In this document: piece by piece, positions 2,827 to 55,303 of the stretch
Position numbering within the stretch: the first letter of the stretch is position 1
How the letters are laid out: each line of letters begins with the position of its first letter
Assembly (NCBI RefSeq): GCF_044324875.1
Contig: NZ_CP172185.1
Direction: 5' to 3' (one strand)
Length of the DNA stretch: 64,000 bases
DNA from: Escherichia coli
Lineage (GTDB): Bacteria; Pseudomonadota; Gammaproteobacteria; Enterobacterales; Enterobacteriaceae
Notes under the pieces: generated by a model
What the model was told of the DNA's origin: nothing
Databases searched by the model: none
Seen by the model: only the letters and a program-made list of their open reading frames with translations
Translations under genes and position numbers: made by a program

Positions 2827-4260
2827 TTACAGCATGTTCCAGCCGATCAGCATATTCCACCACCACACACCGAGGGTGATATGTACCAGGAAGGTTAATA
2901 TCGTCAGTACCGCACCGACCAACCACCAGGATTTAATATCGTTGTAACCCACGCCAAAGATGACCGGACCTGCCGCGCCGCCATAGTGAGTAACCATGCC
3001 GCCATAGGAGTTGGAGAACAACAGTGCCAGCGCGGTTAACATTAACGGTGCGCCGGAGACGTTCGCCAGCATGGCAAATACCGGTAACATAGCAACGATA
3101 TAGGCACTACCGGAAGCGAAGAAATAACGAACGATGATGCTGAGGAAAATAATAACGAAGAAAGCAACGTTACCGTGACCATCAAATGCCAGGTTATTTT
3201 TAAAGACTTCAGCTAACCATTCGAAGAATTTAACTTTCGATAATAAGGAGCTTAAGCCGATAATACCGCCGTACCAGATTAAGGTATTCCAGCCGCCTTT
3301 ATTTTTAACCACGTCTTCCCAGGTAACGATACCCAGCAGCAGCATAGTCGCCATAACAACGATTGCCACGGTGGATTCATCAACCCCCAGTGACTTACTG
3401 AAAATCCAGCCCAGCAGCGCCAGCACGAAGACACCGAGCAGCATTTTTTCGCGGATTTTCATCGGTCCCAGTTCGGCAAGGCCCGCTTTGGCGATAGTTT
3501 TGTTATCCACCTTCTTAATTTCTGGCGGATACATGGTGTAAATCACCAGCGGGGTGACCAGCAGCATAATGATACCCGGCAATCCGGCGGCCAGCGCCCA
3601 TCCACCCCAGCTAATTTGCAGGTGCAGAATGTCGTTGATCATTTTCAGCGCCAGAATGTTCCCCGCCATTGCGGTAAAGAACATATAGCTGGTGGTTTTG
3701 GTGACCATGTAAATGGACATCATCAGGTAATGTCCGACACGACGCGGGCTTTTTTCAGGTTCTGACCCCAAAGCCACCGCCACGCTGTTGATGATCGGTA
3801 ACACAATGCCGCCCGCACGCGCGGTGTTAGACGGTGTTGCCGGAGCCAGTACCAGATCGAGAAATACCGTAACGTAACCCAGGCCCAGGGTAGTGCTACC
3901 AATTTTACCAATCAGCAAATAGGCAATACGTTTACCTAAGCCGGTGGTCACAAATGCGGCGCTTAAGGTAAACGCCGAGAACACCAGCCAGGTGGTACCT
4001 GAAGAGTAACCGCTTAATACGGCGGTGGTTTTAAACGCACCGTCGGATAAGTTACCGACCACCACCATGGAGGCAGCAACGGCAATTAACAGTACGACAG
4101 GTTCCGGGAAAGGCTTGATAACCAGCCCCACAATGGCCGCCAGGTAAATACCAAAAAGCACCCACGCCAGTTCGCTTAATCCTGCCGGAGCTGGCATAAA
4201 GCCAATAATACATGGGATCGCTAATATCAGAATTAGCTTCCATAACGATTTTTTATTCAT
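2827..4260 (-). CDS. ybhI: DASS-family anion/tricarboxylate transporter
   Basis: 477-aa polytopic membrane protein; length and position match K-12 ybhI. Confidence 0.85.
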   Translation of the reverse strand: MNKKSLWKLILILAIPCIIGFMPAPAGLSELAWVLFGIYLAAIVGLVIKPFPEPVVLLIAVAASMVVVGNLSDGAFKTTAVLSGYSSGTTWLVFSAFTLSAAFVTTGLGKRIAYLLIGKIGSTTLGLGYVTVFLDLVLAPATPSNTARAGGIVLPIINSVAVALGSEPEKSPRRVGHYLMMSIYMVTKTTSYMFFTAMAGNILALKMINDILHLQISWGGWALAAGLPGIIMLLVTPLVIYTMYPPEIKKVDNKTIAKAGLAELGPMKIREKMLLGVFVLALLGWIFSKSLGVDESTVAIVVMATMLLLGIVTWEDVVKNKGGWNTLIWYGGIIGLSSLLSKVKFFEWLAEVFKNNLAFDGHGNVAFFVIIFLSIIVRYFFASGSAYIVAMLPVFAMLANVSGAPLMLTALALLFSNSYGGMVTHYGGAAGPVIFGVGYNDIKSWWLVGAVLTILTFLVHITLGVWWWNMLIGWNML

Positions 4261-6565: not shown

Positions 6566-7597
<1,032 letters not shown>

Positions 7598-7715
7598 CTA
7601 AAATTAGTCGCTTTTGGCGGTGAATGCTGAATTAAAACGCAGAATTTTGTCCGATAGTGGTATCGGTGTACCATTCGCGCAGAAGAAAATTCTTAACCTT
7701 AATCTGGAATACGCC

Positions 7716-8534
7716 ATGACCACACGCGTGATTGCTCTCGACTTAGACGGCACCTTATTGACCCCGAAAAAGACCCTGCTTCCTTCATCGATAGAAGCCC
7801 TGGCCCGCGCTCGCGAAGCAGGCTATCAATTAATCATCGTCACAGGTCGCCATCACGTCGCTATTCATCCTTTTTATCAGGCGCTGGCGCTGGATACACC
7901 TGCTATTTGCTGTAATGGCACCTATTTGTATGATTATCATGCAAAAACAGTGCTGGAAGCGGACCCAATGCCCGTTAATAAAGCCCTGCAACTCATTGAG
8001 ATGCTGAATGAACACCACATTCACGGTCTGATGTATGTGGATGATGCAATGGTCTATGAGCACCCGACCGGGCATGTCATTCGCACGTCTAACTGGGCGC
8101 AAACCCTGCCGCCGGAACAGCGTCCGACTTTCACACAAGTCGCTTCTCTGGCTGAAACGGCGCAACAAGTTAACGCCGTATGGAAGTTCGCTCTGACGCA
8201 CGATGACCTGCCGCAATTGCAGCATTTTGGTAAGCATGTCGAACATGAACTGGGACTGGAGTGTGAATGGTCCTGGCACGATCAGGTTGATATTGCACGC
8301 GGCGGCAACAGCAAAGGTAAACGTTTGACGAAATGGGTTGAGGCACAAGGTTGGTCGATGGAAAACGTCGTGGCATTCGGCGATAACTTTAATGATATCA
8401 GTATGCTGGAAGCCGCTGGTACGGGCGTGGCGATGGGCAACGCCGATGACGCGGTAAAAGCGCGCGCCAACATTGTGATTGGTGATAACACCACCGACAG
8501 CATTGCCCGGTTCATTTATAGCCACCTGATTTAA
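7716..8534 (+). CDS. ybhA: HAD-family pyridoxal phosphate/sugar phosphatase
   Basis: HAD motif I (IALDLDGTLL) directly after the ATG at 7716; 272 aa as in K-12. Confidence 0.85.
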   Translation: MTTRVIALDLDGTLLTPKKTLLPSSIEALARAREAGYQLIIVTGRHHVAIHPFYQALALDTPAICCNGTYLYDYHAKTVLEADPMPVNKALQLIEMLNEHHIHGLMYVDDAMVYEHPTGHVIRTSNWAQTLPPEQRPTFTQVASLAETAQQVNAVWKFALTHDDLPQLQHFGKHVEHELGLECEWSWHDQVDIARGGNSKGKRLTKWVEAQGWSMENVVAFGDNFNDISMLEAAGTGVAMGNADDAVKARANIVIGDNTTDSIARFIYSHLI

Positions 8535-11502: not shown

Positions 11503-12291
11503 ATGCAGGCCGAAATCCTTCTCACCCTTAAGCTCCAACAAAAATTATTCGCCGACCCGCGCCGCATTTCGCTACTAAAACACATTGCGCTTTCCGGTTC
11601 CATTAGCCAGGGAGCGAAAGATGCCGGTATCAGCTATAAAAGCGCCTGGGATGCCATTAACGAGATGAATCAGTTAAGTGAGCATATTCTGGTCGAGCGC
11701 GCAACAGGCGGTAAAGGTGGCGGCGGCGCAGTACTGACCCGCTATGGTCAGCGACTGATTCAGCTCTATGACTTACTGGCGCAAATCCAGCAAAAAGCCT
11801 TTGATGTGTTAAGTGACGATGACGCCCTGCCGCTGAACAGCCTGCTGGCCGCGATCTCACGTTTTTCACTGCAAACCAGCGCCCGTAACCAGTGGTTCGG
11901 TACCATCACCGCCCGCGATCATGATGACGTTCAACAGCATGTTGATGTCTTACTGGCTGACGGAAAAACACGCCTGAAAGTCGCAATTACCGCACAAAGC
12001 GGCGCGCGTCTGGGGCTGGATGAAGGCAAAGAAGTGTTGATATTACTAAAAGCGCCGTGGGTAGGCATTACTCAGGACGAAGCGGTCGCACAAAACGCCG
12101 ACAACCAATTACCGGGTATTATTAGTCATATTGAGCGCGGCGCAGAGCAGTGCGAAGTATTAATGGCGCTACCCGACGGGCAAACACTGTGCGCCACAGT
12201 GCCGGTAAATGAAGCGACTTCTCTTCAGCAAGGACAGAATGTCACGGCCTACTTTAATGCCGACAGCGTGATTATCGCCACGCTGTGCTAA
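11503..12291 (+). CDS. modE: Molybdate-responsive transcriptional regulator
   Basis: 262 aa; N-terminal HTH and C-terminal Mop domains; synteny. Confidence 0.9.
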   Translation: MQAEILLTLKLQQKLFADPRRISLLKHIALSGSISQGAKDAGISYKSAWDAINEMNQLSEHILVERATGGKGGGGAVLTRYGQRLIQLYDLLAQIQQKAFDVLSDDDALPLNSLLAAISRFSLQTSARNQWFGTITARDHDDVQQHVDVLLADGKTRLKVAITAQSGARLGLDEGKEVLILLKAPWVGITQDEAVAQNADNQLPGIISHIERGAEQCEVLMALPDGQTLCATVPVNEATSLQQGQNVTAYFNADSVIIATLC

Positions 12292-12358
12292 GCGTGTTGA
12301 CAATTTGTTATGAAACACGTATCCCTGTCAGTAATCGCTGCACAAAATGGGATATAAA

Positions 12359-36600: not shown

Positions 36601-37147
36601 ATCCCTCCTGTCGCGAAAAATGGCCTGCGTTATTGCCAGACGTAATAAAACTTTTGATTAACGTTTCTCGTACTGGTAGCACCTTCATGTACTTTTCTTT
36701 TTTACGAAAAATCAAAAGAGCTAACAAAGGTCATAATTCGCATGAATCATTAATTATTTGTTATTTTCAACATTATTTTTACATTAAGCAGAGATGAATT
36801 GCAGTGAAATTCGACTTAACTTTTATGAAATGCATTTACTCATGGCTAAAGCCACGTCACAAAAATGCAAATTAGAAGTAGATCACAAATATCTCAATAC
36901 ATCAAATCAAGTTAATTTTAAAAATTTAATATTCATGACATTAGTTGACATAACACACTGAATTATAATGAGAATTTGAAAACACACTTTAAACAATCAT
37001 TTCCCGAAAGACATTTTGAAAATAGATCAATTGCAACATTACGGTCAGATAAAGACACTCCTGTGATATTAAACCTGTGCCGTTATGAACGGCCATAAAT
37101 ACGACGTGTGTAACTTATTTTACTCTCTGTCTTACAAAGGATTACCC

Positions 37148-37597
37148 ATGAAGAAAGCAACACTTGTGATTGGCGTTATTGGCGCGGACTGCCATGCAGT
37201 AGGCAATAAAGTTCTGGACCGCGTTTTTAGCAACCATGGCTTCAGAGTCATTAATCTGGGCGTAATGGTCAGCCAGGACGAATATATTGATGCTGCCATT
37301 GAAACTGGTGCTGACGCGATTGTCGTCTCCTCTATCTATGGGCATGGCGATATCGATTGTCTGGGCATGCGCGAACGCTGCATTGAGCGTGGGCTGGGTA
37401 ACATCCTGCTCTATGTGGGCGGTAACCTGGTGGTCGGAAAACATGACTTCGCTGACGTGGAAACCAAGTTCAAAGAGATGGGATTTGATCGCGTCTTTGC
37501 CCCAAGTCATGACTTAGAAGATGTTTGTCAGCTGATGGCCCACGATATCAACCAACGTCATGACGTTGATACTCGCATTCTTGAAGAGGCAATCTGA
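37148..37597 (+). CDS. glmS: Glutamate mutase (methylaspartate mutase) S subunit, B12-binding
   Basis: B12-binding motif (GADCHAVG) and strong resemblance to clostridial GlmS/MutS; start at the ATG at 37148 (149 aa). Confidence 0.85.
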
Positions 37598-38985
37598 TGC
37601 AAATCGTCTCTGTCGATATTGGATCGACGTGGACCAAAGCAGCCCTCTTCGCCCGGGAGGGGGACGCGTTAACGTTGGTTAACCACGTACTGACCCCAAC
37701 CACCACCCATCATCTGGCGAAGGGTTTTTTCTCCAGCCTGAACCTGGTGTTAAACGTAGATAATGCCCTCCCCCTGTTTAACAACGGTGAGGTTGCATTG
37801 AAGTATTCCTCCTCTGCCAAAGGTGGGCTGGCGGTTGCCGCAATGGGGTTGGTGCCATCTATCACCCTGGAAACCGCGAAAGTAACCGCTCACTCTGCGG
37901 GGGCTAAAATTGCGCAATATTACGCCTACAAGCTGAACCGCCGTGATATCCAGGCACTGGAAGAAACGCAGCCCGATATTCTCTTGTTCACCGGCGGCAC
38001 CGACGGCGGAGAAGAAAGCTACGGCCTGAATAACGCCCGTGTGCTGGCAGAATCCAAACTCGACTGCGCCATTATTTATGCCGGAAACCGGGATATTCAG
38101 GACGAGGTGCAGGAGATCCTAGGGCATAAAGACCTGACCATCGTCGACAACGTTCTGCCCGATCTTGACCATCCGAACCCTTTAGCTGCACGCCAGGCTA
38201 TCTGCGACATATTCCTTAAACGCATCGTTAAAGGGAAAGGGCTGGATGTCATTGTTGATAAAACAGGCGAAGAACCAATGCCGACACCATGGACGGTCTT
38301 TGAACTGGTTAAGGCAATCAGTAACGTCGATCACAGCTGGAAAGAGTTCATGCTGATCGACATGGGCGGCGCAACCACCGATGTCTATTCAGCCTGTGCC
38401 AACACGCTCTCGCCCGACACCGTTTTACACGGCGTACCGGAACCCTTCGTGAAACGGACGGTGGAAGGCGATCTGGGAATGCGCGTCTCGGCAATGGTGG
38501 TTGGTGAAAGTGCGAAAGAGTTAGTCAATGTGAATTTTGCTCAGCAACCCGCACAGCTGGACGCTTTTTATCATTACCTCCGTCATCTAGTCGCTCATCC
38601 CGACTACTTACCCGCGAATGTAGAAGAAAAATATTTCGATACCGTCCTGGCCGGACTGTGTGTGGGTTATGCCACCGAAAGACATGCGGGCACCAAAAAA
38701 GAGGTCTGCACCTGCGTCGGCAATGTCGATTTACAGATGGGACGTGACCTGACAACCGTGCGTAAAGTCGTCGGATCCGGCGGATGGCTCTCGCGTGCCA
38801 GTCAGTTCGATATGCATCACTGGTTGAAATACCGCGAGTTAAACGACGACGGTAAACGCATTCTCTTACCGACCGAATTTGAATATTACCGCGATTCCCG
38901 GGGGCTATTACCACTGCTGGCAAACGTCGCCAGAGTCGATCCGCTGGCCGCCGCGCGCACCAGTATTCAATGCTTAACCCTATAA
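37597..38985 (+). CDS. glmL: Glutamate mutase-associated protein L (MutL/GlmL)
   Basis: 462 aa; start overlaps the glmS stop (TGATG); position between S and E subunits as in clostridial operons. Confidence 0.75.
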   Translation: MQIVSVDIGSTWTKAALFAREGDALTLVNHVLTPTTTHHLAKGFFSSLNLVLNVDNALPLFNNGEVALKYSSSAKGGLAVAAMGLVPSITLETAKVTAHSAGAKIAQYYAYKLNRRDIQALEETQPDILLFTGGTDGGEESYGLNNARVLAESKLDCAIIYAGNRDIQDEVQEILGHKDLTIVDNVLPDLDHPNPLAARQAICDIFLKRIVKGKGLDVIVDKTGEEPMPTPWTVFELVKAISNVDHSWKEFMLIDMGGATTDVYSACANTLSPDTVLHGVPEPFVKRTVEGDLGMRVSAMVVGESAKELVNVNFAQQPAQLDAFYHYLRHLVAHPDYLPANVEEKYFDTVLAGLCVGYATERHAGTKKEVCTCVGNVDLQMGRDLTTVRKVVGSGGWLSRASQFDMHHWLKYRELNDDGKRILLPTEFEYYRDSRGLLPLLANVARVDPLAAARTSIQCLTL

Positions 38986-39003
38986 CAATTAAGGCTGCAA
39001 TCA

Positions 39004-40449
39004 ATGGAACTTCGAAATAAGAAATTAACCCATGACGAATTCATGACCGAGCGGCAACAGGTACTGAAAACCTGGGAAACCGGCAAGGATGTTGAAAACT
39101 TTGAAGATGGCGTTAAATACCAACAAACCATTCCTGAGCATAAACGCTTCTCTCTTGTGCTGTTGAAAGCAGACAAGGAAGGTAAAACCCTTAGCCAACC
39201 GCGCGCAGGTGTGGCGCTGATGGACGAACACATCGAACTACTGAAAACACTACAAGAAGAGTGCGATCTGCTGCCGAGCACTATCGATGCATATACCCGT
39301 CTGAATCGGTACGAAGAAGCGGCTGTAGGGATTAAAAAATCCATCGAAGCCGGAACCTCTAAACTGAACGGTTTACCGGTCGTTAACCACGGCGTCGCAG
39401 CTTGCCGTCGCCTCACCGAAACTTTGCAAAAACCGCTACAGATCCGCCACGGCACGCCAGATGCGCGTCTGCTGGCTGAAATCTCGATGTCCAGCGGCTT
39501 TACCAGTTATGAAGGCGGCGGCATTTCCTACAATATTCCGTATGCCAAGCGCGTAACGCTGGAAAAATCGATCCGCGACTGGCAGTACTGCGACCGTTTA
39601 ATGGGGATGTATGAAGAACACGGGATCCGCATCAACCGCGAACCGTTTGGCCCACTAACGGGTACGCTGATCCCGCCGTTTATCTCGCACTCTATCGCGA
39701 TAATCGAAGGCTTGCTGGCGCTGGAACAGGGTGTGAAATCTATCACCGTTGGTTATGGACAGGTCGGCAGCCTGACGCAGGATGTTGCGGCGATCCAGTC
39801 TCTGCGTGAACTTGCACACGAATATTTTCAGAGCTATGGCTATACCGACTATGAATTAAGTACCGTGTTTCACCAGTGGATGGGCGGCTTTCCGGAAGAC
39901 GAATCGAAAGCGTTCGCTATTATCTCCTGGGGCGCAGCCGTCGCGGGGATGTCTGGTGCCACCAAAGTCATCACCAAAAGTCCGCACGAAGCCTGGGGTA
40001 TCCCGACTGCCGCTGCCAACATTCAGGGGCTGAAAGCCTCCCGCCAGATGCTCAACATGGTCAACGAGCAGAAATTCCCGCCGTGCCCTGCGGTTGAACT
40101 GGAAATTGAACTGATTAAGAGCGAGGTTCGCGCGGTACTGAATAAAGTGTTCGAACTGGGTAATGGTGATATTGCGCGCGGTACGGTGCTGGCATTTGAA
40201 GCGGGCGTACTGGATGTGCCGTTTGCGCCAGCCGCCTGCAACGCGGGCAAAATTCTTCCGGTCCGTGACAACACCGGCGCGATACGCGTACTGGAAGCCG
40301 GAGCCGTTCCATTGCCAAAAGATATTCTCGACCTCCACCACGATTACGTTGCGGAACGCGCACGCTTTGAAGGACGCCAACCGACATTCCAGATGGTTGT
40401 AGATGACATCAATGCTGTATCCCACAGTAAATTAATAGGAAGACCATAA
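39004..40449 (+). CDS. glmE: Glutamate mutase (methylaspartate mutase) E subunit
   Basis: 481 aa; extended similarity to clostridial GlmE (LPSTIDAYTR, GGGISYN, TVFHQWMGGFP, FQMVVDDI). Confidence 0.88.
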   Translation: MELRNKKLTHDEFMTERQQVLKTWETGKDVENFEDGVKYQQTIPEHKRFSLVLLKADKEGKTLSQPRAGVALMDEHIELLKTLQEECDLLPSTIDAYTRLNRYEEAAVGIKKSIEAGTSKLNGLPVVNHGVAACRRLTETLQKPLQIRHGTPDARLLAEISMSSGFTSYEGGGISYNIPYAKRVTLEKSIRDWQYCDRLMGMYEEHGIRINREPFGPLTGTLIPPFISHSIAIIEGLLALEQGVKSITVGYGQVGSLTQDVAAIQSLRELAHEYFQSYGYTDYELSTVFHQWMGGFPEDESKAFAIISWGAAVAGMSGATKVITKSPHEAWGIPTAAANIQGLKASRQMLNMVNEQKFPPCPAVELEIELIKSEVRAVLNKVFELGNGDIARGTVLAFEAGVLDVPFAPAACNAGKILPVRDNTGAIRVLEAGAVPLPKDILDLHHDYVAERARFEGRQPTFQMVVDDINAVSHSKLIGRP

Positions 40450-41690
40450 TGAAAATAAAACAGGCTCTGTTCACCGCTGGCTACTCCTCATTCTATTTCG
40501 ATGACCAGCAGGCGATAAAAAACGGAGCGGGTCACGACGGTTTTTTTTATACCGGGGAGCCGGTAACACAGGGGTTTAACGCCGTTCGTCAGGCCGGGGA
40601 GTGCGTATCGGTACAGTTGATTCTGGAAAACGGCGCGGTCGCCGTAGGTGACTGTGCTGCCGTACAGTATTCCGGGGCAGGTGGTCGCGATCCACTGTTC
40701 CTCGCAGAGCACTTTATTCCGTTCCTCAACGACCATATCAAGCCATTACTGGTAGGCCGCGATGTGGATGCTTTCCTGCCGAATGCCCGTTTCTTCGACA
40801 AATTGCGTATTGACGGCAACTTGCTGCATACCGCCGTGCGCTACGGATTATCACAGGCGCTGCTTGATGCTACCGCGCTGGCAACCGGCCGTCTGAAAAC
40901 TGAAGTGGTCTGTGATGAATGGCAGTTGCCACGCGTGGCGGAATCCATTCCATTATTTGGTCAGAGCGGCGACGATCGATATATCGCCGTCGATAAGATG
41001 ATCCTTAAGGGCATCGACGTGCTGCCCCATGCGCTGATTAATAACGTCGAAGAGAAGCTGGGCTTTAAAGGTGAAAAACTGCGCGAATATGTCCGCTGGC
41101 TGTCGGATCGTATTCTGAGCAAGCGCACCAGCGCACGCTACCACCCTACCCTGCACATCGATGTATACGGCACTATCGGTCTGATCTTCGATATGGATCC
41201 GCTTCGCTGTGCGCAATACATCGCCAGCCTGGAAAAAGAAGCGCAAGGCCTGCCGCTCTACATTGAAGGGCCGGTCGATGCTGGTAACAAGCCCGATCAA
41301 ATTCGCCTGCTGACCGCGATTACCAAAGAGCTGACACGCCTCGGTTCCGGCGTGAAAATTGTGGCCGATGAATGGTGTAACACCTACCAGGATATTGTTG
41401 ATTTCACAGATGCCGCCAGTTGCCACATGGTGCAAATCAAAACCCCGGATCTGGGCAGTATTCACAACATCGTCGATGCAGTTCTTTATTGCAACAGCCA
41501 CAGCATGGAAGCGTACCAGGGCGGCACCTGCAATGAAACTGATGTCAGTGCCCGCACCTGTGTCCACGTCGCCCTTGCCGCTCGCCCCATGCGTATGCTG
41601 GTAAAACCAGGGATGGGCTTTGACGAAGGCCTCGATATCGTCTTCAACGAAATGAATCGTACTATCGCGCTGTTGCAGGCTAAGGATTAA
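40449..41690 (+). CDS. mal: 3-methylaspartate ammonia-lyase
   Basis: 413 aa, enolase-superfamily-like; start overlaps the glmE stop (TAATG); typical MAL length. Confidence 0.8.
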   Translation: MKIKQALFTAGYSSFYFDDQQAIKNGAGHDGFFYTGEPVTQGFNAVRQAGECVSVQLILENGAVAVGDCAAVQYSGAGGRDPLFLAEHFIPFLNDHIKPLLVGRDVDAFLPNARFFDKLRIDGNLLHTAVRYGLSQALLDATALATGRLKTEVVCDEWQLPRVAESIPLFGQSGDDRYIAVDKMILKGIDVLPHALINNVEEKLGFKGEKLREYVRWLSDRILSKRTSARYHPTLHIDVYGTIGLIFDMDPLRCAQYIASLEKEAQGLPLYIEGPVDAGNKPDQIRLLTAITKELTRLGSGVKIVADEWCNTYQDIVDFTDAASCHMVQIKTPDLGSIHNIVDAVLYCNSHSMEAYQGGTCNETDVSARTCVHVALAARPMRMLVKPGMGFDEGLDIVFNEMNRTIALLQAKD

Positions 41691-41693
41691 CAA

Positions 41694-43064
41694 ATGGCTC
41701 GTTCTTTTAAAGTCTTATCGCCAACGGCAATCCTCGGGTATGGATTCCCGGAAGAGAGCTTCCGTAAAGCGATGGCAGAATCGCCCGATCTGATCGCCGT
41801 TGATGCAGGCTCTTCCGATCCAGGCCCCCACTACCTCGGGGCAGGCAAACCGTTTACCGATCGCGCAGGGGTCAAGCGCGATCTGCGCTATATGATCACC
41901 GCAGGCGTGCAAAATAATATACCGGTGGTGATCGGAACGGCTGGCGGTTCTGGTGCCGCACCACACCTGGAGTGGTGCCGAGAAATAATTCATGAGATTG
42001 CCCGGGAAGAGCAACTCGCGTTCTCGATGGCGCTGATCCCGGCAGACGTTGACAAAGCCATCGTCCACCAGGCGCTGGATAACGGCAAAATCACGGCGCT
42101 GGATTTTGTCCCGCCGTTAACCCACGACGCGATTGACGAAAGTACGTATATCGTCGCGCAAATGGGCATCGAACCCTTCCAGCGGGCGCTGAAAGAAGGC
42201 GCGCAAGTGGTGCTGGGCGGGCGCGCTTACGACCCGGCCTGCTTTGCTGCGCTACCGATCATGCAAGGCTTTGATGAAGGTCTGGCGCTGCATTGTGGGA
42301 AAATCCTTGAATGCGCGGCAATCGCCGCAACGCCCGGCTCAGGCTCTGACTGTGCGATGGGCATCATTGATGACAACGGCTTTACGCTGAAGACATTTAA
42401 TCCGAAGCGTAAATTTACCGAAACGTCAGCGGCTGCACACACACTGTATGAGAAATCCGATCCCTACTTCCTGCCTGGACCTGGCGGCGTGTTGAACCTG
42501 AAAGGCTGCACATTTAAAGCGGTCAATGACGGCGAAGTGTACGTCAGCGGTTCTAAGTATGAAGAAACGCCGTATTCCCTGAAACTGGAAGGTGCGCGAC
42601 GGGTGGGCTTCCGCTGTCTGACCATCGCAGGAACGCGCGACCCGATCATGATCGCCGGGATCGATAAAATCATTGATGAAGTCAAAACCAGCGTTTCGCG
42701 TAACCTGTCGCTCGACGATGACAGTATTCACATCAATTTCCACCTGTACGGCAAAAACGGGGTGATGGGCGACCATGAACCGATGCAAACTGCCGGGCAT
42801 GAGCTGGGGATTGTCCTTGATGTAGTTGCACCGACCCAGGAAATTGCCAATAGCGTTTGCTCGCTGGTGCGCTCTACCATGCTGCACTACGGCTATGAAA
42901 ACCGCATCGCTACCGCAGGTAATCTGGCGTTCCCGTTCTCCCCTTCTGATATCCAGGGCGGGCCGGTATACGAATTTTCCATATATCACCTGATTGAAGC
43001 CAACGACGCTCTGCGTTTTGATTTCCATATTGAACAGGTGACGCCAGAAGGAGTTCAGGCATGA
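41694..43064 (+). CDS. Conserved protein of unknown function, resembling the DUF1446 (AtuA-like) family
   Basis: 456-aa ORF starting 4 nt after the mal stop; family assignment from memory, not searched. Confidence 0.6.
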   Translation: MARSFKVLSPTAILGYGFPEESFRKAMAESPDLIAVDAGSSDPGPHYLGAGKPFTDRAGVKRDLRYMITAGVQNNIPVVIGTAGGSGAAPHLEWCREIIHEIAREEQLAFSMALIPADVDKAIVHQALDNGKITALDFVPPLTHDAIDESTYIVAQMGIEPFQRALKEGAQVVLGGRAYDPACFAALPIMQGFDEGLALHCGKILECAAIAATPGSGSDCAMGIIDDNGFTLKTFNPKRKFTETSAAAHTLYEKSDPYFLPGPGGVLNLKGCTFKAVNDGEVYVSGSKYEETPYSLKLEGARRVGFRCLTIAGTRDPIMIAGIDKIIDEVKTSVSRNLSLDDDSIHINFHLYGKNGVMGDHEPMQTAGHELGIVLDVVAPTQEIANSVCSLVRSTMLHYGYENRIATAGNLAFPFSPSDIQGGPVYEFSIYHLIEANDALRFDFHIEQVTPEGVQA

Positions 43065-43378
43065 AACAGTCAATTGTCTCACTGGCGCAAGTCATTCGTT
43101 CGAAAAATGCCGGACCTTACGAACTGGTTTTAGATATTTTATTTAAAACCAAAGAAAACTATGAGCGAGTTAAATCATCAGGGCAATTAACCCCAGAACT
43201 GATTGCGCGCTTATATCATGTTGAACCTGACTTTATTCATCGTATTGTCTGGTTTGATCCTTCTAACGCAGTAAAAATCGTCATGCCACGAGATATTATC
43301 TCCGGGAATGTAGGTGACAATGATGTCTATGGTGCACAGCAACATGCACCTTTATTAAATATGAGTTTCGATTTGTAA
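43061..43378 (+). CDS. Small conserved protein of unknown function (105 aa), likely the DUF4387-type partner
   Basis: ATGA overlap with the preceding gene; size and pairing typical of DUF1446/DUF4387 gene pairs as I recall them. Confidence 0.55.
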   Translation: MKQSIVSLAQVIRSKNAGPYELVLDILFKTKENYERVKSSGQLTPELIARLYHVEPDFIHRIVWFDPSNAVKIVMPRDIISGNVGDNDVYGAQQHAPLLNMSFDL

Positions 43379-43461
43379 AAATCCGAATACTTTTAGCCAA
43401 CTGACATCCCGTCACTTATTGCAGTTCAACACTTCAGCTATTTGTAAGGTTGTAATAGCAG

Positions 43462-43493
43462 GTAGATGCCTGAATCTCTATTCAGACATCTAC
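43462..43493 (+). terminator. Strong hairpin (gtagatg-ctgaat…attcag-catctac) with partial U-tract, between the DUF pair and the transporter
   Basis: 13-bp stem with one mismatch followed by ttctcctgattctgattt; seen directly. Confidence 0.45.
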
Positions 43494-43538
43494 TTCTCCT
43501 GATTCTGATTTATCGCCGTGCACCTGATGGAGGAAAAA

Positions 43539-44819
43539 ATGAAGAAAATAAGTTTAACCACGATGATTCTTTTGGCACTGGTACTTGGAATGATTATCGG
43601 CGTAGTGCTCAATAACACTGCTTCACCGGAAACCGCAAAACTCTATGCGCAAGAAATATCGATATTCACGACGATTTTCTTACGACTGATAAAAATGATT
43701 ATCGCTCCGTTAGTGGTCTCTACCCTGGTGGTAGGTATAGCTAAAATGGGCGATGCCAAAGCCCTTGGTCGTATTTTTTCTAAAACACTCTTTTTATTTA
43801 TTTGCGCCTCATTGCTGTCAATTGCCTTAGGCTTGATAACAGTAAATTTCTTCATGCCAGGCACAGGAATTAATTTTGTTGCACACGGAGCCGAAACCAC
43901 CGGAGTGGTCGCGTCAGAACCCTTTACGCTAAAAGTATTTATTTCGCATGCTTTCCCCACCAGCATTGTCGATGCCATGGCGCACAATGAAATTTTGCAA
44001 ATCGTAGTGTTCTCAATTTTCCTCGGCTGTAGCCTGACGGCGATTGGCGAGAAAGGCAGCGCCATCGTTCACGCCTTAGATTCGCTGGCACATGCCATGT
44101 TAAAGCTCACTGGCTACGTCATGCTCTTCGCTCCCCTGACCGTATTCGCCGCTATTTCAGCATTGATTGCTGAACGAGGACTGGCAGTTATGGTGAGCGC
44201 CGGGATCTTTATGGGTGAATTTTATTTCACCATGTTGTTACTTTGGGTGCTGCTTATCGGTCTGGCCATCGTTTATGTCGGCCCCTGCATCAGACGCCTG
44301 ACCCGCGCCCTTTCGGAACCCGCTCTGCTGGCATTTACCACATCCAGTTCTGAAGCGGCTTTTCCGGGAACGCTTGAAAAACTGGAGCAATTTGGCGTTT
44401 CCCCCAAAATTGCCAGCTTTGTCTTACCCATTGGCTACTCATTTAATCTCGTTGGATCAATGGCCTACTGCTCCTTCGCCACAGTTTTCATCGCCCAGGC
44501 CTGCAATATCCATTTATCCATCGGTGAGCAAATCACCATGCTGTTGATCCTGATGTTGACCTCGAAAGGAATGGCTGGCGTACCACGCGCCTCAATGGTG
44601 GTTATCGCCGCCACGCTCAACCAGTTCAATATTCCGGAAGCGGGGCTGATCTTGCTGATGGGCGTTGATCCGTTCCTTGATATGGGGCGTTCCGCGACAA
44701 ACGTCATGAGCAACGCAATGGGCGCTGCGATGGTGAGTCGGTGGGAAGGCGAACATTTCGGCGAGGGTTGTCGGGGTAAAGCATTAAAACCCAATGAATC
44801 GAACGTTGCTCTGCCCTGA
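43539..44819 (+). CDS. Dicarboxylate/amino-acid:cation symporter (GltP/DctA-like)
   Basis: Polytopic membrane protein with DAACS-like motifs; GGAGG RBS before the ATG at 43539 (426 aa). Confidence 0.8.
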   Translation: MKKISLTTMILLALVLGMIIGVVLNNTASPETAKLYAQEISIFTTIFLRLIKMIIAPLVVSTLVVGIAKMGDAKALGRIFSKTLFLFICASLLSIALGLITVNFFMPGTGINFVAHGAETTGVVASEPFTLKVFISHAFPTSIVDAMAHNEILQIVVFSIFLGCSLTAIGEKGSAIVHALDSLAHAMLKLTGYVMLFAPLTVFAAISALIAERGLAVMVSAGIFMGEFYFTMLLLWVLLIGLAIVYVGPCIRRLTRALSEPALLAFTTSSSEAAFPGTLEKLEQFGVSPKIASFVLPIGYSFNLVGSMAYCSFATVFIAQACNIHLSIGEQITMLLILMLTSKGMAGVPRASMVVIAATLNQFNIPEAGLILLMGVDPFLDMGRSATNVMSNAMGAAMVSRWEGEHFGEGCRGKALKPNESNVALP

Positions 44820-44926
44820 GGGGGATCTTAAGCAATCAGAAGCCAATGACTACGCATTTTTATAAGCCGGATCATGAAGTTAGACGGCAATTAAGTAACA
44901 CTAACGTTTAAGGTGAAAAGTGAAAT

Positions 44927-46579
44927 ATGTCCAAACCATTTATCTGGCAAGAACCGTTTCTACAAAATAAAGACGGTACAGAATATACATTAATTAGCGA
45001 TCAACATATTACAGTAACGGAATTAGACGGCGAAGAAGTGATAAAAATCGCTCCTGAAGCATTAACGCTGCTTGCCCGGCAGGCATTTTATGAAGCCTCT
45101 TTTTTCTTACGTTCCGCTCATTTGCAACAGGTCGCCAGCATTCTTAACGATCCGCAGGCCAGTAGTAATGATAAATACGTTGCGTTGCAGTTATTACGTA
45201 ATGCTGAAGTCTCAGCAAAAGGGGTATTACCCAACTGTCAGGATACCGGCACCGCAACTATTGTTGCCAGTAAAGGGCAACAGATATGGACGGGAGGTAA
45301 CGACGCTGAAGCCTTAAGCAAAGGCATTTACAGTACTTTCCAGGAAAATAATCTGCGCTTTTCACAAAATGCGCCGCTGGATATGTATACCGAAGTCAAT
45401 ACGCAAACCAATCTCCCGGCGCAGATTGATATCAGCGCTGTCGCTGGTAATGAGTACCATTTTCTCTGTGTTAATAAAGGGGGCGGCTCCGCCAATAAAG
45501 CCGCACTTTATCAGGAAACCAAATCCTTATTGCAACCAGAAAAACTGACCGCATTTTTAATCGAAAAAATGAAATCGCTGGGCACCGCTGCCTGCCCGCC
45601 TTACCACATCGCCTTTGTCGTCGGAGGGCTTTCAGCCGATCAAACCTTAAAAGTTGCCAAGCTGGCCTCTACGAAATATTACGACAATTTGCCCACCAGC
45701 GGAAACGAGCAGGGACAAGCATTCCGTGATATTGAGCTGGAAAAAGTGTTGCTCGAGGTCAGTCAGCAATTTGGTATTGGTGCGCAATTTGGGGGTAAAT
45801 ATTTCGCTCATGATATTCGCGTCATTCGTCTGCCGCGTCACGGTGGCTCTTGCCCGATAGCTATGACGCTCTCCTGTTCTGCCGATCGCAATATCAAAGC
45901 AAAAATTAACAAGCACGGTATCTGGCTGGAAAAACTCGAACACAATCCGGGGCAATATATTCCAGCCTCACTGCGGGAAGAAAATCACGCGCAACATGTA
46001 CAACTGGATCTAAACCGTCCGTTGCGTGACGTGATGCAGGATCTCGCCAGATTACCGGTAGGCACCCGCGTGTCGTTAAGTGGTCCCATCGTAGTGGCAC
46101 GCGATATCGCCCACGCCAAAATAAAAGCGCGGCTGGATAACGCCGAACCGATGCCGGATTACCTGAAGCATCATATTGTCTATTACGCTGGCCCGGCGAA
46201 AACACCGGAGAACATGGCCTGCGGTTCACTGGGTCCAACCACGGGCGGTCGAATGGACGGTTATGTCGATACCTTCCAGGCGGCTGGCGGCAGTCTGGTG
46301 ATGTTATCGAAAGGTAACCGCAGCCAGCAGGTCACCGATGCCTGTCACAAACATGGTGGCTTCAATCTGGGTAGTATTGGCGGTGCAGCTGCGTTACTGG
46401 CGCAAGAATATGTCAAAAGTCTGCGTTGCCTGGAATACCCGGAGCTGGGTATGGAAGCGGTGTGGATGATGGAAGTGGAAAATCTGCCCGCATTCATCCT
46501 GGTAGATGATAAAGGCAATAATTTCTTTAGTCAGTTTGAGCAGCAACACCGCTGCGCCAGTTGCCCTGCGGGACATTAA
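44927..46579 (+). CDS. fumD: Class I (Fe-S) fumarate hydratase paralogue; FumD-type mesaconase/fumarase
   Basis: 550 aa, alignable by eye with FumA along the whole length; clustering with glutamate mutase and methylaspartase matches published FumD. Confidence 0.8.
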
Positions 46580-46588
46580 GGAAAATGA

Positions 46589-47191
46589 ATGGAAGCGCGA
46601 ATTTCAACTGAACGGCATGTGCAGCGCCAGCAGAAATTGAAGGAACAGGTCGATACGCGCATCGCGGCGGCGATAGAGAAAAAAGGGATTTTGATTGTTT
46701 TCACCGGCAATGGCAAAGGGAAATCCACTGCCGCGTTTGGTACTGTGACGCGCGCGGTGGGTCATGGCAAAACGGTGGGGGTTGCGCAGTACATCAAGGG
46801 GCAATGGGACAACGGCGAATACAACCTTCTCCAGCCGCTGGGGGTTGAGTTTCATATTATGGGAACCGGTTTTACCTGGGAGACACAGAACCGGCAAGCG
46901 GATATCGACGCGGCGAAAGAGGTCTGGTCGGAAAGCAAACGGATGCTGGCTGACAAGCGTTACGACTTAGTGGTGCTTGATGAGCTGACCTATATGCTGG
47001 CTTACCATTATCTGGATACCGAAGAAGTGATCGCTTCTCTGCAAAACCGCCCGGCACAACAAAGTGTCATTGTCACCGGACGCGGTTGCCACAGTCAGAT
47101 ATTAAAAATGGCGGATACGGTCAGCGAAATCCGCCCCGTCAAACATGCTTTTGATAACGGCATTCAGGCCCAGCCGGGTATCGACTGGTAA
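46589..47191 (+). CDS. Cob(I)alamin/cob(I)yrinic acid a,c-diamide adenosyltransferase paralogue (BtuR/CobO-like)
   Basis: 200 aa; P-loop (GNGKGKSTAAFG) and close resemblance to E. coli BtuR. Confidence 0.85.
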   Translation: MEARISTERHVQRQQKLKEQVDTRIAAAIEKKGILIVFTGNGKGKSTAAFGTVTRAVGHGKTVGVAQYIKGQWDNGEYNLLQPLGVEFHIMGTGFTWETQNRQADIDAAKEVWSESKRMLADKRYDLVVLDELTYMLAYHYLDTEEVIASLQNRPAQQSVIVTGRGCHSQILKMADTVSEIRPVKHAFDNGIQAQPGIDW

Positions 47192-47194
47192 TAA

Positions 47195-47221
47195 CTGCGC
47201 CTGGCATCCCGCCAGGCGCAG
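47195..47221. terminator. Bidirectional hairpin (ctgcgcctggc…gccaggcgcag) between convergent cobO-like and LysR genes
   Basis: 11-bp perfect stem followed by gtttta; seen directly. Confidence 0.6.
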
Positions 47222-47224
47222 GTT

Positions 47225-48130
47225 TTACATCTCCTGCGGTACAACCGATTTCGCCAGCAACCATTCACGAAATTGCTGCAAGTGCGGTGAGTCAGACTTC
47301 TCTTCCTGCCACGTCATAATAAAACGATTACCGGTACGAATAGGCACATCACAGGGGATCACCATATCGCCACTATCCAAATCATGTTGAATAGCGAAAC
47401 GTGGTAACAGCGCCACGCCGAGATTAGAGCGCACGGCGGCAATCAGCATTGAAAGCAAATCGAAACGTGGTCCGTTGTTGACCAGCGGACTGCTAACGCC
47501 AGATAAGGCAAACCACTCTTCCCAGCCAGTAATACGGGTACTTTGATGCAGAAGTGGTAACTCTGTAAGCAGTTCTGCCACTGACAGTTTTTGATCGGAC
47601 ATTGCAAGCAAACTGCCGCTGCATACCGGCAAAATCTCCTCATCAAAGAGATATTCTACTTCCGCCCAGGGCGCGCAAAAATTTTCGCGCATAATGACAG
47701 CATCGTACTCCCGATTAAGAAAATCGCCGTTATTAGCTAAAGAGTGAATATTAACAATAATATCGGGATGTAACTTTGTGAATTCATGTAAATTTGGGAT
47801 TAACCAGTGGGTACTAAACGTAGGATTCACGGCAAGTTCAATAACCTGAACCGTAGGCTGCCAGGTCATAATGGTATTGGTATCGCGTTCCAGCTTATTT
47901 AATGTTTCTTTTACTATCCCCAGGTAATACTTCCCTGCATCATTAAGAAAAATACGTTTTTTAGAGTGTGAAAATAACGGAGTATGTAAAAATTCCTCCA
48001 GCGCACTCACTTGTCTGAATACTGCACTTTGGGTCAACGCTAACTCCTCTGCCGCTTTGGTATAACTTTCATGACGTGCGACGACCTCAAAAGTCACCAG
48101 CAGCTCCGTTTTAGGTATTTTTCCTCGCAT
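47225..48130 (-). CDS. LysR-family transcriptional regulator
   Basis: 301 aa; N-terminal HTH (YTKAAEELALTQSAVFRQVSALEE). Confidence 0.85.
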   Translation of the reverse strand: MRGKIPKTELLVTFEVVARHESYTKAAEELALTQSAVFRQVSALEEFLHTPLFSHSKKRIFLNDAGKYYLGIVKETLNKLERDTNTIMTWQPTVQVIELAVNPTFSTHWLIPNLHEFTKLHPDIIVNIHSLANNGDFLNREYDAVIMRENFCAPWAEVEYLFDEEILPVCSGSLLAMSDQKLSVAELLTELPLLHQSTRITGWEEWFALSGVSSPLVNNGPRFDLLSMLIAAVRSNLGVALLPRFAIQHDLDSGDMVIPCDVPIRTGNRFIMTWQEEKSDSPHLQQFREWLLAKSVVPQEM

Positions 48131-48169
48131 AATGCCGTCCCTTAAAAATAGTTTAAACCATCAAAAATA

Positions 48170-48191
48170 CATTACTTATTACGAAGTAATG
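48170..48191. promoter_or_regulatory. Perfect 22-bp palindrome CATTACTTATTACGAAGTAATG upstream of the LysR gene
   Basis: 8-bp inverted arms around a 6-bp spacer, 40-60 bp upstream of the start codon. Confidence 0.45.
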
Positions 48192-48693
48192 GTAACCAAA
48201 GCAGCAATAAATAATTTATAAGAATCATGATTGACATTTATAACCCAGTAAGCCTGGCGTGACAAATATCTTAATCAGATAATAATAATCCGAAAAGCAC
48301 AGCGCCTTTCGAATTATCCGGAATCACATTAAGTGAAAATTATTAAATTGATATCATTTATCATATCTGTGGATATTATGATAAACAATCAACAAAGATT
48401 TTATTTTTGATTTATAGCATATCCCTCTAAGAATTTTTGCGATGCTGCAATATCCGGGGTAAAGACCCGATCCTGGCTGACAAATGGCACGACTTGACGA
48501 TAAGCGGTGAACATCGCTTTTGTTGATTTACTTAACGCTACGGTCAAACGCTGGGAAGCCAGTGCATCAGGTAACGATTCGAAATTCGCCGTCGTTCTTA
48601 TTCGTGGCTTGCGGTCGGTTGCGGCAATCCACAGTGGCTGTGGTCATGCAGTCAAGCCAGCGGTCAGATTTCGACCGTGGTTAACATTTAAGG

Positions 48694-48720
48694 CATAAAA
48701 AAGGCCATCATACGATGGCC
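48694..48720 (-). terminator. Rho-independent terminator after sucD (ggccatc…gatggcc plus U-run)
   Basis: Hairpin then TTTTTTTAT on the minus strand. Confidence 0.7.
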
Positions 48721-48795
48721 AACCATGTCGAAACCGACAACCCTTCGCCATTCCTGTAGAGGGAAGCGGCGAGGGCTATTTCTTATTACAGATAT
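48694..48795 (-). ncRNA. sdhX: sucD 3' UTR, the region from which the SdhX (RybD) sRNA derives in E. coli
   Basis: Position only (between the sucD stop and its terminator); I could not verify the sRNA sequence from memory. Confidence 0.35.
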
Positions 48796-49665
48796 TTATT
48801 TCAGAACAGTTTTCAGTGCTTCACCGATATCCGCCAGGCTGCGAACGGTTTTCACGCCTGCGGCTTCCAGAGCAGCGAATTTCTCATCCGCAGTCCCTTT
48901 ACCACCGGCAATGATGGCACCCGCGTGGCCCATACGTTTGCCTTTCGGCGCAGTCACACCAGCGATGTAACCCACAACAGGCTTGGTAACGTGCTCTTTG
49001 ATGTACGCAGCCGCTTCTTCTTCAGCGCTACCGCCGATCTCACCGATCATCACGATCGCTTCGGTCTGCGGATCTTTTTCGAACATTTCGAGAATGTCGA
49101 TAAAGTTAGAGCCAGGGATCGGATCGCCGCCGATACCAACACAGGTCGACTGACCGAAACCGTAATCCGTGGTCTGTTTAACCGCTTCATAGGTCAGTGT
49201 ACCGGAACGGGAAACGATACCCACTTTACCCGGTTTGTGAATGTGACCCGGCTGGATACCGATTTTGCATTCACCCGGAGTGATAACGCCTGGGCAGTTC
49301 GGGCCGATCATACGAACGCCAGCTTCGTCCAGTTTCACTTTCACAGTCAGCATATCCAGCGTCGGGATGCCTTCAGTGATGGTGATAATCAGTTTGATGC
49401 CTGCATCGATGGCTTCCAGAATGGAGTCTTTGCAGAACGGTGCTGGTACGTAGATAACAGAAGCGGTAGCGCCAGTAGCAGCAACAGCTTCACGCACGGT
49501 GTTGAACACCGGCAGGCCGAGGTGGGTGGTGCCGCCTTTACCTGGGGTTACGCCGCCAACCATTTTAGTGCCGTATGCAATGGCCTGTTCTGAGTGGAAA
49601 GTCCCCTGGCTACCGGTAAAGCCCTGGCAGATAACCTTGGTGTTTTTATCAATTAAAATGGACAT
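48796..49665 (-). CDS. sucD: Succinyl-CoA synthetase alpha subunit
   Basis: 289 aa; synteny. Confidence 0.95.
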
Positions 49666-55120: not shown

Positions 55121-55303
55121 CTGCATTTCTTTTGTAGGCCGGATAAGGCATTCACGCCACATCCGGCGCTGTTTGCCTGATGCGACGCTTGCGCGTCTTA
55201 TCAGGCCTACGATTTCTGCATTTCTTTTGTAGGCCGGATAAGGCGTTCACGCCGCATCCGGCACTGGTTGCCTGATGCGACGCTTGTGCGTCTTATCAGG
55301 CCT
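55121..55303. repeat. Tandem duplication (period about 95 bp) of a REP/BIME unit in the sdhB-sucA intergenic region
   Basis: Two near-identical units starting ctgcatttcttttgtaggccggataaggc… at 55121 and 55216. Confidence 0.8.

Follow-up and report, generated by a model that had tools for sequence, protein, structure and literature searches.

The eut and pdu operons share a design in which an adenosylcobalamin (AdoCbl)-dependent radical enzyme comes with a chaperone and an adenosyltransferase of its own. The reactivase-like chaperones are EutA and PduGH and the adenosyltransferases EutT and PduO, respectively, with PduS as an additional component of pdu. CobA-type adenosyltransferases, represented by CobA of Salmonella enterica and BtuR of Escherichia coli, are unrelated in sequence to both EutT and PduO. 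A further AdoCbl-dependent system is the enterobacterial methylaspartate (glutamate mutase) cluster described by Kronen and Berg (2015, PLoS One 10:e0145098, PMC4682846), who characterised FumD of O157:H7 biochemically and gave the frequency of the cluster as 26.5% among E. coli and 90.6% among O157:H7 strains. The legend to their Fig. 5 labels 'CobA, cob(I)alamin adenosyltransferase' together with a LysR regulator in the enterobacterial clusters.

We have analysed a 64,000-nucleotide stretch of E. coli DNA, referred to as the window, which carries this cluster and, as its last gene, a 200-codon ORF with an ATG start at 46589..47191 (+ strand) in the ORF listing. The cluster is that of Kronen and Berg (2015), with no structural difference, its frequency being about 21% of the genomes surveyed here. 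Both the cluster and its adenosyltransferase gene are already known, the latter as cobO in RefSeq on an identical cluster and as CobA in Kronen and Berg (2015); we refer to it as island cobA. Added here are a paralogue phylogeny, a selection analysis, a residue comparison and strict linkage statistics. Island cobA probably encodes a functional CobA-type enzyme dedicated to cofactor maintenance for the methylaspartate cluster, a reading drawn from sequence comparison and based on an intact active site, operon position, linkage across genera and purifying selection.

Assignment of the 200-aa ORF to the BtuR/CobO family, as originally predicted, is borne out by every comparison made. Island CobA scores 246.6 bits against the NCBIfam equivalog TIGR00708 'cobA' (curated cut-off 167.75) and 296 bits against PRK05986 (cut-off 185), and matches Pfam PF02572 (CobA_CobO_BtuR) over model positions 1-172 of 172 with an E value of 6e-64. 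A weaker match is observed to PF12557 (Co_AT_N; E 6.4e-4, residues 8-25), the N-terminal helix which in the CobA family caps the active site of the neighbouring subunit. BtuR, encoded at the yciK-btuR-rluB locus of E. coli, is 67% identical and 83% similar over 196 residues with 0 gaps. The S. enterica CobA structures 1G5R and 4HUT are matched end to end (E 3e-88), the alignment to 1G5R residues 2-196 being free of gaps, with an identity similar to that observed for BtuR. Unlike CobA and BtuR, island CobA has a 4-residue N-terminal extension. The ORF apparently encodes a bona fide and catalytically intact member of the CobA/BtuR family. A chance ORF is ruled out by the family, BtuR and structure matches, and an exact btuR duplicate by the 67% identity, in keeping with the prediction of a paralogue additional to the housekeeping gene.

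The alignment used to assess active-site conservation comprised 17 island-type and 29 housekeeping proteins, together with the Morganella copy and, as outgroups, 6 remoter homologues. Outside the island clade 38 columns do not vary, and 37 of these are retained by the window protein, the sole change being a conservative one, F64 to Y. The P-loop, GNGKGK(S/T)T, is present as G40-N-G-K-G-K-S46-T47, its serine (position 42) also occurring in some housekeeping and outgroup proteins, and is accompanied by the Walker-B-like pair D131/E132 (D127/E128 in S. enterica numbering). F95 and W97, invariant in the 17 island, 29 housekeeping and 6 outgroup sequences, are the equivalents of S. enterica F91 and W93, residues which, according to the title of Moore et al. 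(2012, Biochemistry 51:9647), are critical for generating the four-coordinate form of cob(II)alamin. R165 of the window protein, equivalent to S. enterica R161, is also retained. Island CobA therefore resembles S. enterica CobA and E. coli BtuR in family, fold, P-loop, D/E pair, F91/W93 equivalents, R161 and N-terminal helix.

These observations bear on the reading that the gene is inactive or decaying in a silent island. Such a reading could draw on the report that no condition leading to expression of the O157:H7 cluster was found in the laboratory, with or without cobalamins, and that methylaspartate ammonia-lyase activity was undetectable (PMC4682846). A literature search by the Sakai locus tags ECs0755-0762 returned no expression data for the cluster genes, nor was a published assay of the island adenosyltransferase found. 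However, the ORF is intact with 37/38 family-invariant residues, the cobO annotation is that of an intact CDS in all genomes sampled and purifying selection is strong, rendering inactivity extremely improbable. A pseudogene is ruled out by the residue conservation and selection results combined.

Gene order in the window is glmS-glmL-glmE-mal-atuA-DUF4387-transporter-fumD-cobA, all on the + strand, with cobA last and a convergent LysR gene beyond. glmS (37148..37597), assigned from RefSeq annotation and its translation, encodes the methylaspartate (glutamate) mutase B12-binding subunit S, which carries the cobalamin-binding DxHxxG motif (GADCHAVG). It is followed by glmL (37597..38985), encoding a glutamate mutase accessory protein and presumed reactivating chaperone; the earlier glmL call is upheld by 507 bits against the NF040745 equivalog 'methylaspartate mutase accessory protein GlmL' (cut-off 475) and 885 bits against TIGR01319. 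Methylaspartate mutase catalytic subunit E is encoded by glmE (39004..40449; TIGR01503, 863 bits) and methylaspartate ammonia-lyase by mal (40449..41690; TIGR01502, 544 bits). The dicarboxylate/amino acid:cation symporter gene (43539..44819), presumed to function in glutamate uptake, is GltP/DctA-like on the basis of sub-threshold NCBIfam DctA and GltP matches and the RefSeq name, and fumD (44927..46579) encodes a 550-aa class I fumarase/mesaconase (NF011921, 1279.6 bits). The LysR-family regulator gene (47225..48130, - strand), with a GcvA-like NCBIfam match, is found downstream of cobA in 13/13 island-type loci.

Between mal and the transporter lies an AtuA-family (DUF1446) and DUF4387 gene pair (41694..43378), named from RefSeq and from PF07287 and PF14330 in orthologous loci. 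The two ORFs (456 and 105 aa) overlap at stop and start, the pair is conserved in the E. coli, Salmonella, Citrobacter and Enterobacter clusters and neither member was matched in the NCBIfam or PADLOC scans. The fate of citramalate is stated as unknown by Kronen and Berg (2015; PMC4682846), and this pair is therefore an obvious candidate for a missing step. PADLOC scanning of the uncharacterised cluster and flanking proteins detected no defence-system matches.

The island cobA ATG is located 9 nt past the fumD stop codon (TAA, 46577-46579). A Shine-Dalgarno-like AAGGA read from the sequence (46578..46582, + strand) overlaps this TAA and ends 6 nt before the cobA start, an arrangement which suggests co-transcription and coupled translation of cobA with fumD. 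Between the convergent cobA and LysR genes, a terminator-like hairpin of 11 pairs, 9 of them G-C, followed by GTTTTA (47195..47221, + strand), is the top-ranked terminator-like site within 36000-48900.

The island locus is like eut and pdu in that an adenosyltransferase gene lies in the predicted operon of an AdoCbl enzyme, a linkage conserved across taxa, and in that the same predicted operon contains a gene for a reactivase-like chaperone, GlmL, whose proposed function follows the diol dehydratase reactivase analogy cited by Kronen and Berg (2015; PMC4682846). It is unlike them in that the adenosyltransferase is CobA-type and in that neither a PduS analogue nor microcompartment genes are present in the cluster; no PduS-like cobalamin reductase was found among its annotated or Pfam-typed genes. 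A PduS-like reductase is also missing from eut, so this feature is not defining for a dedicated module.

Distribution of the gene was surveyed in 5,426 complete E. coli genomes. Island cobA is present at at least 95% identity in 1,122 genome records and the whole 11.3-kb cluster in 1,117 genomes, and these near-equal counts indicate that the extra copy travels with the cluster. btuR, with 67-68% nucleotide identity to island cobA, is present in virtually all E. coli genomes. Among the matches listed, island-positive genomes have two places each, an island copy at at least 99% and btuR at 67-68% nucleotide identity. eutT, which adjoins the reactivase gene eutA in the eut operon, is detected in 5409/5426 genomes. 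The original prediction of a second adenosyltransferase consequently holds for enzymes of the CobA type, whereas, EutT being nearly universal, island CobA is the third adenosyltransferase of these strains overall. Plasmid-borne matches in the collection amount to 7 places for cobO and 2 for the cluster.

Beyond E. coli, the closest database proteins, 83-87% identical and all 200 aa long, are those of Citrobacter, Enterobacter, Salmonella enterica and relatives. The cobA gene is again located 9 nt behind the fumarase gene in the same cluster of Salmonella, Citrobacter amalonaticus and Enterobacter cloacae, and it directly follows fumD in Salmonella, Citrobacter, Enterobacter, Klebsiella, Lelliottia, Buttiauxella and Morganella. 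Linkage was quantified by a scan of one genome per species, as representative proteins clustered at 50% identity were too coarse to part island from housekeeping copies. All loci at 80% identity or above (13/13) are preceded by FumD and followed by LysR. In every housekeeping-type locus (66/66; 65-71% identity) the upstream gene is yciK, and nine genomes contain both kinds of locus. Across the 13 island-type loci FumD, LysR and the transporter are near-identically placed; the FumD matches end at 3985-3988, ahead of cobA at 4001. In one further locus, a 68% identical Morganella morganii copy also follows FumD.

The gene content around the cluster varies between genera. In Salmonella, Citrobacter and Enterobacter a glutaminase gene (7224-8256 in loci L003, L005 and L007) separates the transporter gene from fumD. 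It is missing from the E. coli cluster, in which the transporter gene and fumD are only ~107 bp (44820-44926) apart. In Salmonella and Citrobacter, genes for a TP_methylase ('SumT', uroporphyrinogen-III methyltransferase-like) and a PocR-domain AraC regulator are located just past LysR (11979-13644 in loci L003-L006), genes which are not present in the window. Their position beside LysR connects corrin metabolism with the surroundings of the cluster in genera known to produce B12.

E. coli depends on corrinoid salvage, and the original prediction framed island CobA as belonging to an organism that cannot make B12. Salvage dependence stands, but as an explanation for the gene this framing does not, as Salmonella and Citrobacter, which are known to produce B12 anaerobically, carry the same gene in the same position. 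Island cobA is thus a feature of the cluster rather than compensation for the missing B12 synthesis of E. coli.

Phylogenetic analysis separates the two groups of proteins. Island CobA is 80-85% identical to other island proteins and 65-71% identical to housekeeping proteins, and the island clade is monophyletic in 100/100 neighbour-joining (NJ) bootstraps. In the NJ bootstrap, support for the alternative placements of this clade, as the sister group of the housekeeping copies as a whole or of the Morganella copy, is low (32-35%). Island cobA is under strong purifying selection, dN/dS between island orthologues being 0.03-0.06 and their synonymous sites saturated or nearly so. Island CobA falls outside the housekeeping BtuR/CobA orthologue group, as it does not follow yciK, forms a separate clade and lacks the Arg165 of S. 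enterica CobA. Combined, these results indicate that island cobA is an old, selectively maintained paralogue which is tied to the cluster.

Simple redundancy is the main rival to a dedicated role in cofactor maintenance. Island CobA would then be a functional enzyme carried along by the island with no special tie to glutamate mutase, BtuR being sufficient and the extra copy adding only gene dosage. BtuR occurs in essentially all genomes and EutT in 5409/5426, so the island copy could be dispensable, and S. enterica CobA has a broad substrate range and serves several AdoCbl enzymes. In addition, the Fig. 4 legend of Kronen and Berg (2015; PMC4682846) has no adenosyltransferase in the clostridial clusters for glutamate fermentation, indicating that a linked adenosyltransferase is no intrinsic requirement of the mutase. 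However, all island-type loci examined, which come from at least seven genera, Morganella among them, have the gene 9 nt behind fumD, and the low dN/dS with saturated synonymous sites reflects long-term selection, which is unexpected for a merely redundant gene. Redundancy is, on balance, unlikely, and a dedicated function of island CobA in maintaining the cofactor of glutamate mutase is preferred.

This dedicated function may be envisaged as follows, by extension from S. enterica CobA and from the eut and pdu systems. Once the LysR regulator switches the operon on, island CobA would bind salvaged cob(II)alamin, which in E. coli has to come from outside, and force it into the four-coordinate state. 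Flavodoxin or free dihydroflavin, the reductants summarised for CobA in PMC4083273, would act as electron donor for reduction to cob(I)alamin, which would then attack C5' of ATP to yield adenosylcobalamin and triphosphate. The product would then be loaded onto GlmS, the B12-binding subunit of the His-on type. Should glutamate mutase become inactivated, GlmL, presumed by analogy to be an ATP-dependent reactivase-like chaperone, would release the damaged cofactor, which island CobA could re-adenosylate. The original prediction that the block carries its own AdoCbl supply and repair capacity is supported by the physical and evolutionary tie of cobA to the glutamate mutase-GlmL cluster evident from synteny, although 'supply' would cover only the final adenosylation step.

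Residues distinguishing the island clade raise the possibility of a further alteration in function. Ten positions (74, 78, 90, 92, 115, 137, 140, 144, 169 and 170 in window protein numbering) tell every one of the 17 island proteins apart from each of the 29 housekeeping proteins, the changes including R165 to S/T/A, R74 to Y, D136 to H and H111 to E in S. enterica numbering. These substitutions, which together with the clade and the position after fumD rather than yciK set island CobA apart from CobA and BtuR, are a small new detail beyond published descriptions of the cluster. The residue at S. enterica position 165 is Arg in 29/29 housekeeping proteins; in 17/17 island proteins it is Ser, Thr or Ala (S169 in the window protein). 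R9 and R165 of CobA are reportedly needed for flavodoxin-dependent activity but not for activity with a chemical reductant. Replacement of Arg165 throughout the clade therefore suggests that interaction with the electron donor may differ from that of the model enzyme.

An altered electron-donor or partner specificity of the island clade is nevertheless a low-probability lead. Based on replacement of Arg165 and nine other clade-specific residues, the cluster-linked clade might be specialised, being freed from flavodoxin A, using another donor or handing AdoCbl directly to GlmS/GlmL, which we consider doubtful; such a dedicated cofactor-delivery complex would have an analogue in the way the human adenosyltransferase passes its product to methylmalonyl-CoA mutase. 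That direct hand-off through docking to GlmS/GlmL by altered surface residues, or use of a donor other than flavodoxin A, constitutes the main role of the enzyme is very unlikely. Although all ten positions, R165, R74, D136 and H111 among them, part the two groups completely, position 165 is variable in distant CobA homologues (R, R, D, K, P and E in the six outgroups), so that loss of Arg165 need not alter function. In addition, R9 is retained in island CobA and no reductase gene is evident in the cluster. The Morganella morganii copy (locus L067, 2268-6515), a 196-aa CobA encoded directly after a FumD homologue and 67-71% identical to the island clade, is linked to the cluster yet has housekeeping-type residues, R165 included. 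In this locus a truncated LoiP-like M48 protease ORF lies between the CobA and LysR genes.

If island CobA is active, the methylaspartate cluster, as carried by O157:H7 and roughly one in five E. coli strains, shares the eut/pdu design, and gut glutamate catabolism would depend on corrinoids cross-fed by the microbiota. This would be a modest extension of well-established biology. The larger questions surrounding the cluster concern its inducer, the role of AtuA/DUF4387 and the further metabolism of citramalate, while the remaining value of island CobA lies in its biochemistry and clade-specific substitutions.

An Rfam scan of the whole window revealed no cobalamin riboswitch or other B12-linked RNA, the only matches being tRNAs, RtT, naRNA4 and the cpoB thermometer. 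These comprise a seven-gene tRNA array, two RtT elements, a cpoB/ybgF RNA thermometer and two naRNA4 elements (24354-26316 and 55137-55302), the two REP-derived naRNA4 elements being located between sucA and sdhB. At the edge of the island opposite cobA, two ORFs annotated in RefSeq as 'hypothetical protein' (35153-36097, 314 aa; 36178-36600, 140 aa) lie between cydA and glmS and gave no significant Pfam or PADLOC match. At the cobA edge, a 660-bp AT-rich non-coding stretch (48131-48795) separates the LysR gene from sucD. The corresponding interval is filled by rtcB, mngB, mngA and mngR in E. coli strain 7/2 and is short, as in the window, in TUM14771, indicating that the island occurs in at least two flank configurations.
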